Shown here: positions 1-9,886 of the stretch, one piece after another
How the letters are laid out: each line of letters opens with the position of its first letter
Position numbering within the stretch: position 1 is the first letter of the stretch
Virus record (IMG/VR): IMGVR_UViG_2778261064_000002
DNA length: 9,886 nucleotides
Direction: 5' to 3' (one strand)
Origin: a virus
Lineage: Duplodnaviria; Heunggongvirae; Uroviricota; Caudoviricetes
The notes under the pieces: model-generated
Told to the model about the DNA's origin: nothing
Databases searched by the model: none
The model's input: only the letters and a program-made list of their open reading frames with translations
Program-made: the position numbers and the translations under genes

Positions 1-34
1 GTCTCAACAACTGCATTGTGTGATCCTCTCACGT

Positions 35-68
35 TTATCGAATTCGATAATCAAATTCGATTATCGAA
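35..68. promoter_or_regulatory. Operator-like palindromes upstream of the HTH regulator gene: a perfect 16-bp palindrome TTATCGAATTCGATAA (35-50) and an odd-centred 13-bp palindrome TTCGATTATCGAA (56-68) sharing the half-site TTATCGAA
   Basis: Read directly from the sequence. Two adjacent dyad-symmetric sites with a shared half-site lie in an AT-rich leader about 115-150 bp upstream of the ATG at 184. Dyad sites like these are typical of dimeric HTH repressor operators. Which protein binds them is unknown. Confidence 0.4.
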
Positions 69-183
69 TGTGATAAAAGATATGCGATCAAAAGTACGCG
101 GTCAATAACTTTTTGCGTATTTTTAGTCGCGCAAGCACAAAAGTACGCACATGCTTGTAACCTGTTAATTTATATGGTGAATT

Positions 184-855
184 ATGGAAAAGAACGGAAA
201 TGCGCCAATTAACGATAAACGTACTTTTTCTTATGATGGAATAGTACGCTTTAACGAACGTCTGAGAATCGCCATGGGAGATATGAGTAATCACGCTCTT
301 GCACGGCAAAGCGGCTTATCCGAGGCATCTATAAGAAAGTATGTAAAAGGTGATAGCTATCCAACTATTGATAATGCAGCAAAAGTTGCTGATGCGTGTG
401 GAGTATCTCTTGCATGGCTGTTAACTGGTGAGGATTGCGGTACTGATGATAATCACAAACGACCAGGTGCGAACAAAAAGACGCAAAAGAAAGCGTTAAC
501 TGATGCGTACAATGATGCGCAGAACGGATTACAACTTATATTGGCTAATCTTCTACCTGAAGATGCTGAAATGTTATTCTCGACGCTATGCAAAGTAGGT
601 ATTAACGGTGTGTTGGCACGATTACACGCAACAGGCGACCATGTTTTAAGTGCTGACCCAGAAACGGTCATCCGAAGCCTGAACATCAGAGAATCGCTCA
701 AAGATGCCATTAGTGTGGCATTGGCTGGCAACGAAGAAACTGACAAAGAGATTTTGCAACGCGCCAAATCCTGTATCCGAGCAGGAACACCAGGTGATCG
801 CGTTCCCGTCACACCGGAGCAAAAAACTAAGCCTATAAACAAGAAATCAGCATAA
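184..855 (+). CDS. XRE-family helix-turn-helix transcriptional regulator (cI-like N-terminal DNA-binding domain, uncharacterised C-terminal domain), 223 aa
   Basis: ORF from the track with ATG at 184 and GGTGA 4 nt upstream. Residues about 20-80 (NHALARQSGLSEASIRKYVKG...AKVADACGVSLAWLLTGE) match the XRE/cI-type HTH followed by the characteristic VS..WLLTG motif. The C-terminal roughly 140 aa looks helical and lacks the S24 peptidase Ser/Lys hallmarks of LexA/cI autocleaving repressors. Confidence 0.8.
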   Translation: MEKNGNAPINDKRTFSYDGIVRFNERLRIAMGDMSNHALARQSGLSEASIRKYVKGDSYPTIDNAAKVADACGVSLAWLLTGEDCGTDDNHKRPGANKKTQKKALTDAYNDAQNGLQLILANLLPEDAEMLFSTLCKVGINGVLARLHATGDHVLSADPETVIRSLNIRESLKDAISVALAGNEETDKEILQRAKSCIRAGTPGDRVPVTPEQKTKPINKKSA

Positions 856-1157
856 GCGCCTCGTTTTGGCGGGGCGTGTGCTGTTAGCTAATCAGCAATA
901 ACCACAACAAAACCGAACACAACAGATGAGAACAACTTGAGGAAAACGGGCAAGGATAAAACACTTTTTAAAAGCATTTAAAACCCGTTAAGTTTGTAGC
1001 AGAACCAGATCAAAAGCGCCCAGAATAAAGCGTAAAAAAAGGCACTTTTGGTCATTTCTCACAAATCCGCCCAGAATCACACTGAATCACCACACCCCGC
1101 GCCACGCAAGGCTTGCAGGTTCTACCAGGCTGCACGAACTCCACCCAGAATTGATCG

Positions 1158-1700
1158 CTACCCCACAGTTGCTCCCACTTTTACACTGGCAGATGCCGGT
1201 GCCACCGTCAGCCCGGTAACGCTCACTGTTTCAGTGCCTTCCTCTGCCAGATACGGACGCCCCACACCGCTGATTTTCACAGTGCGGGTCATCACGTCTT
1301 TTGAGGCAATGGTTTTACCCAGTGAACTCAGCCAGCCACGGAAAACATCAACAGTACCGTTGGGATATTTGATACGAAACGCGCAGACTTCACCGGAGTC
1401 GAACAACTGAACCAGTTTTTTCTGCCCGCTGTCACCCGGACGCCAGGCCAGCGTCGCCGAAGTATCACCGACTGATTTCTGCCCCTGGGTTGTCGTTTTC
1501 CAGTCTGCATCTTCATCATCGAGATAAGTATCATCTTCTGCATCAGCGGTCATTTCGCCAGGTTGCAGATCCTTCACCATCGCAAGACGCAGCCAGTCAG
1601 TGTCTGACAAAGGGTTCGCAAATGCGTCGCCGTTGCCGGTATACATCCAGAACGTCGTCCCCGCACCTTTCGTCTTTGCCAGTGGATTTGGTGTGGTCAT
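1158..1700 (-). CDS. V: Major tail tube protein, lambda gpV homologue, C-terminally short (180 aa; lacks most of the Ig-like C-terminal domain)
   Basis: Translation from the ATG at 1698-1700 ([36 protein letters not shown]...YLDDEDADW...[12 protein letters not shown]...[12 protein letters not shown]...) aligns closely with lambda gpV as I recall it ([36 protein letters not shown]...). Strong RBS AAGGAGGTG upstream. The upstream in-frame extension of the track ORF to 1775 is rejected. The ORF stops at TAG 1158-1160 where lambda V continues. Confidence 0.9.
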
Positions 1701-6857: not shown

Positions 6858-7075
6858 CAGAACCTCGCCAGCCGGTACCCGGGATGCCCCCGTCGTCGTG
6901 TAATCAGAGCCGCAAGGCGGCGCTCCCACTCCTGCCGTCCCTGCCGGATCTCAGATAAGTTTTCCATGGTCATCTGCTGACCATTAAAGGTGACGGATTT
7001 TCCGTCCAGCACCGCCATTTCAGCTTCCGTATAACGCTGAATCATGGCTTCGATATCATTCTGGTTCATAACCAT
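6857..7075 (-). CDS. W: Head-tail connector / head completion protein, gpW-like (72 aa; alternative ATG at 7067-7069)
   Basis: Small ORF between the large terminase and portal genes, as in lambda. The C-terminal RRRGHPGY matches lambda gpW RRRGPAGF, and the central region is similar. Its start overlaps the large terminase stop codon. Confidence 0.75.
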   Translation of the reverse strand: MVMNQNDIEAMIQRYTEAEMAVLDGKSVTFNGQQMTMENLSEIRQGRQEWERRLAALITRRRGHPGYRLARF

Positions 7076-9168
7076 CCTCCGGAAGTCAGCCAGGGGTTAA
7101 CATCGTCAGTTACTGTTTTCTTCCGTTTTTGTTTTTTAACAGGCGTGGATACCGGTTCCGGTGAGGGTGACGGTTCGGTACTGTCCGGGACACACTCCAG
7201 CCAGGTTTCCCGGCTCGCCCACTCCGGTGCATCCGGCCAGCGGATCTTTTCGTATCCATGCAGAATGACCAGAGCCTCGGCATACACCATCAGGTCAAAA
7301 GCTTCGTTGGCACCGCGACCCGGCTTACTCCATTTCCCGTCACTGCTCCGCTCTTCATACGTCAGTTCGTCGTAAAACCAGCTCCCCAGCCAGTCAGGGA
7401 AATGCACATAGCCGGGACCTGGCGAGTCACGCCATAACGCGTTATTCACCCGGTCTTTCAGGGCATCCGTCTGAAGAAGCCAGAGCGGCACATCACCTGC
7501 GGCCTGCGCCCGTCGGCCCGTTCGTCCGGTGTTATCAGGGAATGTACGGGTGATCAGTTTTGCGCGCCGGATGCTGTCGCCCTTAAACAGGTAAATACGT
7601 TTACCAAGGCCATCACGACGGCAACGACGCCAGAATTTATAGGCATTATCAGTGACCCCGTCTTCACCGCCGGAGTCCACCGCCATTGCCATCAGTCGCA
7701 TTTGTTGAGAAGGATCGGAGGCCAGCGGCCAGCTTTTATGAAAAACATCCGTCAGCAGGACATCCCAGTCTTCCGGATAGCTGGCCGGATCAATTCGCTG
7801 GCTCTCCCCGTCGCTGTCACCGCGCAATGACTGCGTGATGTTGTAACGATCAATAATCCAGCGTTCACCACGGCTGCCATAGCCCGTTACCTGAACCACA
7901 AAACGGCGATGACGTCCCGCCTGCACATCCACTGTCGCCACAAGGAAATTAACGCCATCCGGCACACTGCGGGAAGGAACTGGCTCTGCCCGCTGCTCAA
8001 GCAGTTCACTTTTTCGTTGCTCCATGCTGGCGCGGGGAAGATAAGGTAATCCCCAGTCGGTATTGATAACCGTCTTGAGTGTTTCTTCACTTCCGGTTGT
8101 CTCGTATTCCTGTTCTGCAGTAAGCAGTTTGTAAACGAGTTGCGAGAGTGTCTGGTAAGCAGCTGCCGGACCCTCCATCCAGAATGACGCAATACGTGAA
8201 CGTCGGGGATCACCATAACGACTGCCATCCGCATTGATGGATTCACCATCCCGCAACCAGACCCCACGTCCGTTCAGCTCACGTTTTTGTTCAGGCATAA
8301 TCCGTCCTGAACAGGAAGGACACTGAATATAAGCCGCCTCACTTGCCAGCACGGGATCGGCAATATCACGGAAACCAGCAACCACATCGCCGCAGGGCTG
8401 AAAATACTCACCACAGTGTGGACAGGGCCAGTACCAGCGACGGCGATCGCCACGGTTATAGAGCGACAGTATCCCCGTGGTTGGCGGAGCCTCATGCGGT
8501 GAAGTCCGTCGCCATTTCACATCCTTCACATCCCTGCCGGGGGAACTCTCCACCAGCGTCATACCACTGGACATAAATGTGGTGGTACGTTTTGAGGCAA
8601 GAGAGAAGGCATCCCCCTCGCCATCAATATCTTCCGGAAAACGGTCATAATCCGTCAGCGCGACGCATTTATAATCTGATGAGGACATGATATTGACTGA
8701 TGGCCAGCCGATTTTCAGGTAGTTGCCAGCAAGGAATGTTCTGTCATAAACGTTGTTGTCATTTTTGTTCGGACTCAGGCGACTGACCACTTCCGGGCTG
8801 ACGCGAAACGTTCTGGCAAGTCGTTTTTTGGAGTGTTCGCGGGCTTTTTCCTCCGTCATCTGAATGATCAGCATATCCGCAGGATCGCAAATCACGTTGT
8901 AAATCACCCAGCCGTCAATCAGGCCGATAGTCTTGCCGGTTCGTGCCGGACCAACAAATATCACTGCGTCGTATTCACGCGAGGCCAGGCAGTTCATCGG
9001 CTCAATAACATACGGTGCGACCAGCGGATCCCACGGGACTGAGTTCCCGGCCCCCATGGGCACCTGCATATACTGAGCAACGGCATCAGCAACCCGCATT
9101 CGTCTCGGTGCGCGAAGGATATAACCTGAATCGGTTCGTGCTGCCTTTGCGGTTTCCTGATTCAGCAT
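7066..9168 (-). CDS. Terminase large subunit, gpA family (700 aa)
   Basis: Walker A-like motif VGPARTGKT near the N-terminus and a Cys/His cluster WPCPHCGEYF...CPSC comparable to the lambda gpA ACPHCGE region, with size and position matching. The start ATG overlaps the small terminase stop (TAATG), with GGAGG RBS. Confidence 0.93.
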   Translation of the reverse strand: MLNQETAKAARTDSGYILRAPRRMRVADAVAQYMQVPMGAGNSVPWDPLVAPYVIEPMNCLASREYDAVIFVGPARTGKTIGLIDGWVIYNVICDPADMLIIQMTEEKAREHSKKRLARTFRVSPEVVSRLSPNKNDNNVYDRTFLAGNYLKIGWPSVNIMSSSDYKCVALTDYDRFPEDIDGEGDAFSLASKRTTTFMSSGMTLVESSPGRDVKDVKWRRTSPHEAPPTTGILSLYNRGDRRRWYWPCPHCGEYFQPCGDVVAGFRDIADPVLASEAAYIQCPSCSGRIMPEQKRELNGRGVWLRDGESINADGSRYGDPRRSRIASFWMEGPAAAYQTLSQLVYKLLTAEQEYETTGSEETLKTVINTDWGLPYLPRASMEQRKSELLEQRAEPVPSRSVPDGVNFLVATVDVQAGRHRRFVVQVTGYGSRGERWIIDRYNITQSLRGDSDGESQRIDPASYPEDWDVLLTDVFHKSWPLASDPSQQMRLMAMAVDSGGEDGVTDNAYKFWRRCRRDGLGKRIYLFKGDSIRRAKLITRTFPDNTGRTGRRAQAAGDVPLWLLQTDALKDRVNNALWRDSPGPGYVHFPDWLGSWFYDELTYEERSSDGKWSKPGRGANEAFDLMVYAEALVILHGYEKIRWPDAPEWASRETWLECVPDSTEPSPSPEPVSTPVKKQKRKKTVTDDVNPWLTSGGWL

Positions 9169-9659
9169 TACTCCTCCTGCTGTAATTCCTCCTCATCATC
9201 CGCACCTGCTTCGGTCACCCGCAGGGCTATCTGATCGCGCAGATCATCAATAATGGACTGAACACGGCTCACAGCGGCAGGCTGCAGACCGCAGTCGCGT
9301 TCCAGAATATCCGGTAATGTCTCCAGCACCTGCACGACCGCTTTTGCCCAGATGGCAAACTCCCGTCTGACATCACTGGCCGGAATGAGTTGTGCTGTTT
9401 CCTGTTCGAACTTAAGACGCTCACGTTCAGACTGATACCAGGCTTTGCGCTCATGTGGATCCATTTCGCCCTCAGCAACCGGCGGTGGTAACCCCATAAA
9501 TTCAGTCAGAATATCGGTCAACCGGTATAGCTTGAGTTTGTCATGTCCACCAGCGGGACGAATGTTTTTCAGTCTTGCCACGACAGTCTGGCGGTGCAGA
9601 CCAGATAAAGCCGCCAGTTGATTAATATTCAGCACCAGGTTTTTCAACTCATGATCCAT
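9168..9659 (-). CDS. Terminase small subunit, Nu1-like (163 aa)
   Basis: First gene of the packaging operon, immediately upstream of and overlapping the large terminase gene. N-terminal HTH-like segment (LVLNINQLAALSGLHRQTVVARLKN) and acidic C-terminal tail (DDEEELQQEE), as in Nu1-type small terminases. Strong RBS GGAGGAAAT before the ATG. Confidence 0.8.
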   Translation of the reverse strand: MDHELKNLVLNINQLAALSGLHRQTVVARLKNIRPAGGHDKLKLYRLTDILTEFMGLPPPVAEGEMDPHERKAWYQSERERLKFEQETAQLIPASDVRREFAIWAKAVVQVLETLPDILERDCGLQPAAVSRVQSIIDDLRDQIALRVTEAGADDEEELQQEE

Positions 9660-9886
9660 ATTTCCTCCGGAGAGCTTTAAACATGCATCGTGCGAACAAC
9701 TTTAAGAAAACGCGTTCGATGTCGAACAAAAAACACTCAATTCGACATACAAAAAACAAACAACCATTAATAATCAATAAGATGCAAAGATGATGGTGGC
9801 CGATAAAAAGTAACCGGCTCATTTAAACCGTCTGGTCTGTTTCCTCCGGCTCTACAAAAATAATGTCCATCATTTTTAATGGACAC
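9660..9886. other. Non-coding region upstream of the small terminase gene; candidate cos / terminase-recognition region with TCGAAC/GTTCGA repeats and a terminal 7-bp inverted repeat
   Basis: No credible ORF. Imperfect palindrome GTTCGATGTCGAAC (9714-9727), inverted copy TTCGACAT (9741-9748) and CGAAC at 9693-9697. Inverted repeat TGTCCAT-cattttta-ATGGACA at 9864-9885. By analogy with lambda, cosB/cosN lie within about 200 bp upstream of Nu1. The cos assignment is inferred from position only. Confidence 0.25.

Follow-up and report, generated by a model that had tools for sequence, protein, structure and literature searches.

An IS66-family element probably separates cosB from cosN in a lambdoid prophage with a DUF1441 small terminase subunit

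The cosB sites of lambda, phi80, 21 and Gifsy-1 share the order R3-I1-R2-R1 with R2 inverted (PMC9026076), and Gifsy-1 combines lambda-like 12-nt ends with an R3-I1-R2-R1 cosB (PMC4669245, PMC9026076). R3 occupies bp 50-65 in lambda and bp 48-60 in N15 (PMC9026076). The cosQ element is 7 bp long and highly conserved, and within the cohesive end bp 7-12 vary, with the left half and cosQ being conserved (PMC4669245). The cohesive end of phages LLS and mEp213 has been inferred as GGGCGGCGCGCT (PMC12315714). In lambda, deleting even 3 bp from the segment that separates cosN from cosB leads to a severe packaging defect (PMC4669245, PMC9026076).

The window, the whole stretch of DNA analysed here (9,886 nt), is the entire draft contig PTRP01000062.1 of GCA_002965585.1, which is recorded in four samples. 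As it comprises a whole draft contig, both of its ends are probably repeat-induced breaks, and the contig most likely breaks off inside a multi-copy IS repeat. The minus strand carries a lambda-type head module that comprises TerS, TerL, a small head protein, a lambda-family portal and a ClpP-protease/major-capsid fusion, and that continues with a cement protein and then Z, U and tail-tube homologues, the tail-tube gene being split by a Mu-like prophage at 1167/1168. The terminase genes are as follows.

9168..9659, minus strand: small terminase gene (TerS), 163 aa, Pfam DUF1441 (PF07278, E=4.6e-44)
7066..9168, minus strand: large terminase gene (TerL), lambda gpA family, ATPase and endonuclease domains (PF05876, E=8.5e-72; PF20454, E=1.1e-85)

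The TerS gene lies directly upstream of the gpA-family TerL gene (GpA_ATPase, GpA_nuclease), and it is such adjacent terminase genes with a gpA-family large subunit that mark a lambda-type cos. A preliminary description of the window, made from its letters alone, had called the small terminase gene Nu1-like; the role is borne out by related phage records, in which the DUF1441 protein is annotated as the terminase small subunit (vB_EcoS-606R10, mEp460 and Gifsy-2), but the family is DUF1441 and not Pfam Nu1. An N-terminal HTH-like segment of TerS gives a weak Pfam match to HTH_30 (residues 11-40), and this match, together with analogy, suggests a winged-HTH fold; the search for solved-structure relatives of TerS returned no significant match (best E = 0.78) and none to Nu1 structures. 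Over 21,000 blocks of a public protein collection index this TerS sequence. The lambdoid prophage to which positions 9660-9809, upstream of this gene, belong has a head module resembling that of Gifsy-2/mEp460.

We consider it probable (about 0.85) that 9660-9809 is the cosB half of a lambda-type cos, and that an IS66-family (ISCro1-type) element has inserted in TTTTTATC and displaced cosN. The preliminary description had proposed an alignment to the cos regions of related lambdoid phages, and in this comparison of sequences 9660-9809 shows homology to the interval between cosN and terS in lambdoid phages of the Gifsy/mEp460 type; the last 77 nt of the window are not phage sequence. Colinearity with the window extends from terS to TTTTTATC in eleven close uninterrupted relatives (ten prophages with identical TerS, and phage PhiR40_1), which then continue ...GGGTCCTCCCGGTGGGGTGGCCTGCCACGGGGCGGGAGCGTCGCGGAAAAAGGCTAGTTTTTGCA. 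Beyond TTTTTATC the intact relatives carry ...ACGGGTCCTCCCGGTGGGGTGGCCTGCCACG GGGCGGGAGCGT CGCGGAAAAAGGCTAGTTTTTGCA, so that the uninterrupted arrangement reads ...GCATTTTTATCGGCC... with TTTTTATC in single copy. Every uninterrupted relative examined has cosQ (GGGTCCT) and a lambda-like cosN just upstream of TTTTTATC; among 80 loci in IMG/VR, a public viral-contig collection, 78 contain the cosN core, 72 contain GGGTCCT and none contains the IS.

The intact sequence aligns with the lambda right-end/left-end join as ACGGGTCC..CCGGTG..ACGGGGCGG...CGCGG. The GGGTCCT of the intact relatives falls on lambda 48473-48479, which we take to be the cosQ of Wieczorek & Feiss 2001, and CCGGTG is common to both. 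As in lambda, GGGTCCT precedes the ACG|GGGCGG... nick region by 29-30 bp; in the alignment ACG|GGGCGG starts the 12-mer, and CGCGG follows it. By this alignment the 12-nt 5' cohesive end of the intact relatives is predicted to be GGGCGGGAGCGT, and the nick positions would be those of the lambda site by analogy. The predicted end is unlike that of lambda at positions 7, 8, 9 and 11, which fits the published rule that bp 7-12 are variable (PMC4669245). If bp 1 is the G that opens the predicted end, the terS start is at bp 187 here; in lambda it is at bp 191. The boundaries of three phage records provide indirect hints of 12-nt 5' cohesive ends: the LLS record has its cohesive end annotated at bp 1, the record of Hafnia phage yong2 stops exactly at the bp 12 equivalent and begins CGCGGG, and in mEp460_4F5 the cut lies 5 nt upstream of the nick predicted here. 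Prophage L014 departs from the other prophages immediately left of GGGTCCT, which indicates that the conserved block starts at cosQ. A literature text search for the predicted 12-mer retrieved unrelated papers only, and a search for Hafnia phage yong2 found no paper. Within 9660-9886 of the window, cosN (ACGGGGCGG...CGCGG; lambda-like GGGCGGCGACCT with conserved CG flanks, ∼190 bp upstream of terS) is absent, and cosQ (GGGTCCT, ∼30 bp upstream of cosN) is absent from the window.

At the place where the relatives continue into cosN, the window contains the following features.

9802..9809, minus strand: 8-bp insertion target TTTTTATC, inferred to be one copy of a target-site duplication (bp 37-44 of the intact cos)
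9810..9886, plus strand: tnpA-proximal end of an IS66-family element, ISCro1 type, consisting of the terminal inverted repeat GTAACCGGCTC..., the 5' leader and tnpA codons 1-8
9864..9885, no strand assigned: TGTCCAT-n8-ATGGACA, within IS66-family tnpA codons 1-8

In megablast searches against phages and complete E. coli genomes, homology to related prophages ends at window position 9809, and all 77 nt of 9810-9886 agree (100% identity) with three independent IS copies of 2,699 bp, located on an F-type plasmid, in a Stx prophage and in an O157:H16 chromosome. Searches with the same 77 nt gave 5,253 matches across 1,732 complete E. coli genomes and 1,761 across 1,204 plasmid records. The matched places carry the annotation ‘IS66-like element accessory protein TnpA’; next come tnpB and a transposase of the IS66 family, which NCBI PGAP labels ‘ISCro1 family’ in one genome. 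The three full copies end in GTAAGCG.../...GGTTAC, with imperfect terminal inverted repeats that match at 16 of 22 positions, and are flanked by 8-bp duplications (GATTTTAG, TTTTTATC and TTTATCAT); the other, tnpA-distal, end reads GTAAGCGACTCG.... Their length of 2,699 bp, the GTAA-starting imperfect terminal repeats, the 8-bp target duplications and the proteins encoded (tnpA 225 aa, tnpB 115 aa, DDE transposase, tnpC, 523 aa) are all as in IS66-family elements of the ISCro1/IS679 type. The terminal repeats with target duplication and the three genes are found in these full, identical copies elsewhere, whereas the window shows one end, one inferred target copy and tnpA codons 1-8; in its first 77 nt nothing distinctive sets the window's element apart from the ISCro1/IS679 type, and ‘ISCro1 family’ is the PGAP label. 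The tnpA start, transferred from the NZ_CP145711.1 annotation, lies at window 9863 (ATG TCC ATC ATT TTT AAT GGA CAC). It is the end of an IS66-family element that occupies 9810-9886, both the identity of the IS and its exact boundary, 9809|9810, being directly observed. The preliminary description had regarded the roughly 225 bp upstream of terS as non-coding and as one continuous phage region, which fails on both counts, as 9810-9886 is an IS66-family end and 9863-9886 are tnpA codons 1-8. A 57-aa open reading frame at 9822..9649 is a chimeric chance frame that has no Pfam match and takes its start codon from inside the IS.

The phage side of the boundary shows the subsites of a cosB. Positions in the intact cos are numbered as bp = 9846 minus the window coordinate.

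9786..9797, minus strand: candidate R3 TerS-binding site ACCATCATCTTT, core CCATCAT at 9796..9790 (bp 50-56), with one mismatch to TCRWCAY
9772..9784, plus strand: IHF-like site, I1 equivalent, AATCAATAAGATG, matching 8 of the 9 specified consensus positions (one mismatch to WATCAANNNNTTR)
9741..9748, plus strand: candidate R2 TerS-binding site TTCGACAT, inverted with respect to R1 and R3, core TCGACAT at 9742-9748 (bp 98-104)
9714..9727, minus strand: candidate R1 TerS-binding site GTTCGACATCGAAC, the imperfect palindrome of the preliminary description, core TCGACAT at 9725..9719 (bp 121-127)
9676..9705, minus strand: conserved block AAAGTTGTTCGCACGATGCATGTTTAAAGC (bp 141-170), containing CGAAC at 9693-9697 and lying outside the R core pattern

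Eight phages were compared, namely the window phage (type A), an mEp460-like phage (type B), L065 (type C), VT1-Sakai, Fels-1, Gifsy-2, LLS and yong2, the TerS proteins other than that of the window phage being 44–87% identical to it. Across these phages the core TCRWCAY recurs at bp 44-52 (+), bp 96-100 (-) and bp 119-123 (+), not at every position in every phage. For R3, runs of TCATCAT/TCATCAC are found at bp 44-55 on the R3 strand in type B, type C, VT1-Sakai, Fels-1, LLS and yong2, and CCACCATCATC, in the R3 region, is invariant in type-A sequences. Seven of the eight DUF1441-TerS phages carry a core at the R2 position, bp 96-100, on the opposite strand; the exception is type C (L065), where only TTAACAT, a variant with one mismatch, is present, and lambda has no such core at this place. 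On the R1 strand, TCRWCAY occurs at bp 119-123 in type B, type C, VT1-Sakai, Fels-1 and Gifsy-2, and Gifsy-2 displays the same cosB design with TCGACACTGAA-type sites. Judged by sequence, the placement of TCRWCAY corresponds to an R3-I1-R2-R1 layout in which R2 is inverted and the IHF-like site lies between R3 and R2, with positions and orientations that are conserved.

Conservation within the types follows the same pattern. In a set of 19 distinct type-A and 33 distinct type-B sequences there is little change in the R cores, and the spacers take most of the variation. The R1 site is invariant in all 19 distinct type-A sequences, the type-B R1 core varies at bp 125 and bp 127, and the R2 core has one minor variant in each of types A and B. 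The block at 9676-9705 is almost invariant in the same 19 and 33 upstream sequences and is recognisable in type C (L065). One-mismatch matches to the IHF consensus number 8 in the whole window against 7.35 expected; given this chance frequency, the consensus was rejected as stand-alone evidence, and the site at 9772-9784 is retained only as positional evidence, that is, for its place between R3 and R2, as in lambda. In mEp460-type relatives a perfect IHF consensus (TATCAATCTATTA / TATCAATACATTA) occupies the same place within diverged flanks. By analogy with lambda, TerS and IHF would be the proteins that bind these sites. R1 was also flagged by a terminator scan, but its fold is only -5.4 kcal/mol (z = -0.86), and it was discarded as a terminator.

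Reading of both strands, together with a repeat finder, placed all four motifs of the preliminary description where it had located them. These are GTTCGATGTCGAAC (GTTCGA-TG-TCGAAC) at 9714-9727, with arms of 6 bp and a 2-bp spacer; TTCGACAT at 9741-9748, which is a perfect 8-bp inverted copy of ATGTCGAA at 9719-9726; CGAAC at 9693-9697; and TGTCCAT-n8-ATGGACA at 9864-9885, with TTATTTTT following it on the minus strand. By themselves the repeats do not exceed what chance would give: perfect inverted repeats of 8 bp or longer within 40 bp arose in 70 of 1000 dinucleotide shuffles of 9660-9809, and a 7-bp inverted repeat in 66 of 1000 such shuffles of 9810-9886. Their significance comes only from the comparison with related phages, in which the TCGAAC-type repeats coincide with the R2 and R1 positions conserved across the family and so may well be the small-terminase recognition sites that had been proposed. 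Likewise, the expectation of Nu1 R-sites plus an IHF site as in lambda is realised in R2, R1 and the IHF-like site, but R3 (9786-9797), which is critical in lambda, had been missed.

Relative to lambda, the locus is alike in its gpA-family TerL, in TerS lying immediately downstream of cos, and in a three-site cosB with an inverted middle site, an IHF-like site in the interval from R3 to R2, and similar distances from cosN. It differs in that the TerS of the window belongs to Pfam DUF1441 and not to the Phage_Nu1 family, and that the R core of the window phage is TCRWCAY, whereas the lambda R sequence is of the CGTTTCC type. In addition, R1 of the window phage, at bp 121, is closer to R2, lambda R1 being at about bp 145, and both cosQ and cosN are missing from the window. 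The cos sites of Gifsy-1, Gifsy-2, Fels-1, mEp213 and LLS provide the closer likeness, with a DUF1441 TerS (44–63% identity), a ClpP-like protease fused to the capsid protein, and a conserved placement of the TCRWCAY sites. The window phage is set apart from the Gifsy/mEp213/LLS type by its predicted 12-mer GGGCGGGAGCGT, by R2 and R1 in the TCGACAT variant, and by the IS that interrupts its copy; in LLS and yong2 the cosB is shorter, which places terS at bp 130-131.

The preliminary description saw the region up to the window end as a cos, and the window might accordingly be thought to hold a complete and functional site in which the 9864-9885 repeat forms part of cosN/cosQ or of a packaging-signal end; TerL is of the gpA family, and the 227 bp from the terS ATG to the window end approach the 190 bp between cosN and Nu1 in lambda. 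This is extremely improbable, as neither cosN nor cosQ occurs in 9660-9886, relatives carry both exactly where the window has IS sequence, and the repeat is identical in IS copies on plasmids and at unrelated loci. What stands of the cos claim is the cosB homology of 9660-9809; cosN lies outside the window, beyond the switch to IS66-family sequence at 9809|9810, and the ‘terminal inverted repeat’ assigned to cos is IS sequence, identical on F-type plasmids, in a Stx phage and in a chromosome. The same repeat had been offered as a terminator for phage late or lysis transcription, and its hairpin with the minus-strand T-run has the appearance of an intrinsic terminator upstream of the terminase genes: a scan flags a 10-pair stem followed by TATTTTTGTA, and the minus-strand RNA folds at -11.2 kcal/mol (z = -3.7) and is followed by UUAUUUUU. 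We nevertheless hold a phage terminator to be highly unlikely. The hairpin belongs to the IS, overlaps tnpA codons 1-8 and travels with every IS copy, and the region from the lysis genes to terS lacks such a hairpin in uninterrupted relatives. A terminator here would also be counter-productive, since lambdoid phages need their late transcript to pass through cos and on into the head genes. The hairpin could instead serve the IS itself, either by stopping outgoing antisense transcripts or by occluding the tnpA start in read-through RNA; on the plus strand it folds at -8.0 kcal/mol and takes in the UG of the tnpA start codon.

A further alternative is that the 9809|9810 junction is an assembly artefact, a chimeric contig end, and that cos is really intact. 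The phage-IS junction is known from one contig; it was found neither in 5,426 complete E. coli genomes nor in the 80 IMG/VR loci, and the exact 40-nt junction pattern was not found in GTDB species-representative genomes, so that it is absent from every other genome searched. Moreover, the IS tail measures exactly 77 nt, and 77 is a common largest k-mer of de Bruijn assemblers, which suggests that the contig end was shaped by the assembler. Against this, the break coincides with the very end of the IS, the terminal base of its inverted repeat, a boundary that a random chimera would not respect, and the adjoining 8-bp target is AT-rich, like the targets of other IS copies. A 77-nt overlap into a repeat is also what is expected at a genuine unique-to-repeat junction in a short-read assembly, and the same 9,886-nt contig was recovered in four samples. 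An artefact at this position thus seems to us a slim prospect.

The insertion of the IS in TTTTTATC, the reading we prefer, would have direct consequences for packaging. In the intact order, cosQ (GGGTCCT) would be followed after 29 bp by cosN (GGGCGGGAGCGT), after a further ∼36 bp by R3, I1, inverted R2 and R1, and after another ∼60 bp by the terS ATG at bp 187. DUF1441 TerS dimers, assisted by R1, would occupy the TCRWCAY cores in R3 and R2 on the two sides of a bend induced by IHF, and the bound TerS would anchor the gpA-type TerL on cosN, ∼45 bp away. TerL would then make staggered nicks at cosN and packaging would start towards terS, with termination at the next cos requiring cosQ and cosN. 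Entry of the 2.7-kb IS66-family element into TTTTTATC, at bp 37-44, would separate cosN from cosB and initiation would be lost. The IS sits 5 bp before R3, and cosQ and cosN, if they still exist in the genome, would be at least 2.7 kb from cosB. Given that small deletions between cosN and cosB are severely defective in lambda, a 2.7-kb element 5 bp before R3 should abolish packaging initiation, and by this analogy the prophage is probably unable to package its own DNA. Under a simple insertion, the far junction would consist of the IS end GTAAGCGACTCG... joined to ...GGCTAGTTTTTGCATTTTTATC.

Neither component of the region is of a new kind: one is a lambda-type cosB as in the Gifsy/mEp460 group, the other the end of an IS66-family element. 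Modest novelty lies in mapping TCRWCAY explicitly for DUF1441 terminases and in a naturally occurring IS insertion that parts cosN from cosB. Recognition of the junction keeps an IS66 end from being annotated as a phage cos element or terminator, and gives exact cosB subsite coordinates for a very common E. coli prophage head module. The prophage is probably packaging-defective, with its cos split by the IS and its tail-tube gene by the Mu-like prophage, and its terminase, portal and capsid genes are intact; if this is true, it could still supply terminase and heads to other elements with a matching cos. The conserved TCRWCAY layout is a testable proposal for the reading of cosB by DUF1441 TerS, and extends the work of the Feiss laboratory on lambda, 21, N15 and Gifsy-1. 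We advance only tentatively, as a conjecture with the odds somewhat against it, the fuller scheme in which DUF1441 TerS would read TCRWCAY as R3(+)-IHF-R2(-)-R1(+), the CAT and CAC cores would represent distinct specificities, the contig would be a spacing mutant, and the IS hairpin would act as a read-through guard. A one-residue code relating the residue after HRQT in the recognition helix to CAT or CAC cores was rejected, as type C (L065) breaks the pattern. Cores of the CAT type are present in the window phage, VT1-Sakai, Fels-1 and LLS, and cores of the CAC type in mEp460 and Gifsy-2.

The window is the whole of contig PTRP01000062.1 (9,886 nt; assembly GCA_002965585.1), and the same contig is present in four samples. 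The tail of the IS66-family element at its right end is exactly 77 nt long, the length to be expected when a k=77 de Bruijn contig stops in a repeat. Three comparison loci, L007 (NZ_CP145711.1), L003 (LC645450.1) and L105 (NZ_CP051001.1), carry independent copies of this 2,699-bp element, and the target duplications of these IS66-family copies are 8 bp in length and AT-rich (TTTTTATC, GATTTTAG and TTTATCAT). The octamer TTTTTATC is the target of both the F-plasmid copy and the insertion in the cos site of the window, which hints at a target preference of the IS66-family element. The L009 prophage also has an IS66-family insertion in its protease-capsid gene (L009 11215-12492), and another adjoins a phage portal gene in NZ_CP195362.1 (search match H42). 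These two insertions lie in the same head module as that of the window, at other sites within the module, and prophages with this head module may have been inactivated repeatedly by IS66-family elements.

The left end of the window (1-1167, with the junction between 1167 and 1168) is not lambdoid but comes from a Mu-like transposable prophage, of which it is the left end. This element reads inward from its end as TGTGGGGTAGCG... and carries the following gene:
184-855, plus strand, c-repressor-like HTH gene.
At ~38-70 the Mu-like element has operator-like repeats (ATCGAATTCGATAATCAAATTCGATTATCGAA) at its inner edge, in a divergent regulatory region that adjoins the repressor gene. The Mu-like stretch recurs with 100% identity in Escherichia coli OkiPb01701, where the copy continues with a Ner-like gene, a Mu-type transposase and an AAA ATPase, and where the insertion site is fliH. 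In the window, the Mu-like element breaks the lambda-V-like tail-tube gene, whose product has 180 aa here and 247 aa in intact relatives; the lambdoid prophage has therefore suffered two disruptions, the other being that of cos by the IS.

A further reading frame, with its start in the IS, overlaps cosB:
9649-9822, minus strand, 57-aa ORF.
This ORF has no match in Pfam. In the uninterrupted relative PhiR40_1, an annotated 101-aa 'hypothetical protein' (L001 2856-3161) spans cosQ-cosN-cosB in the same frame region, and both reading frames are likely to be artefacts of annotation across the cos site. The 10-nt sequence TTTCCTCCGG occurs twice, as a perfect direct repeat: the copy at 9661-9670 is complementary to the Shine-Dalgarno region of terS (CCGGAGGAAATATG), and the copy at 9840-9849 lies within the IS leader. 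The repeat is probably coincidental.

The mEp460_4F5 record (L002, LR595868.1, 1-30) has 3 nt fewer than L059 and the other loci with mEp460-like (type B) upstream sequences. The missing nucleotides fall directly after the predicted cohesive end (GGGAGCG-CGG versus GGGAGCGTCGCGG), and the cut in the record lies 5 nt upstream of the predicted nick; the gap and the offset cut could both be end-assembly artefacts of the record.
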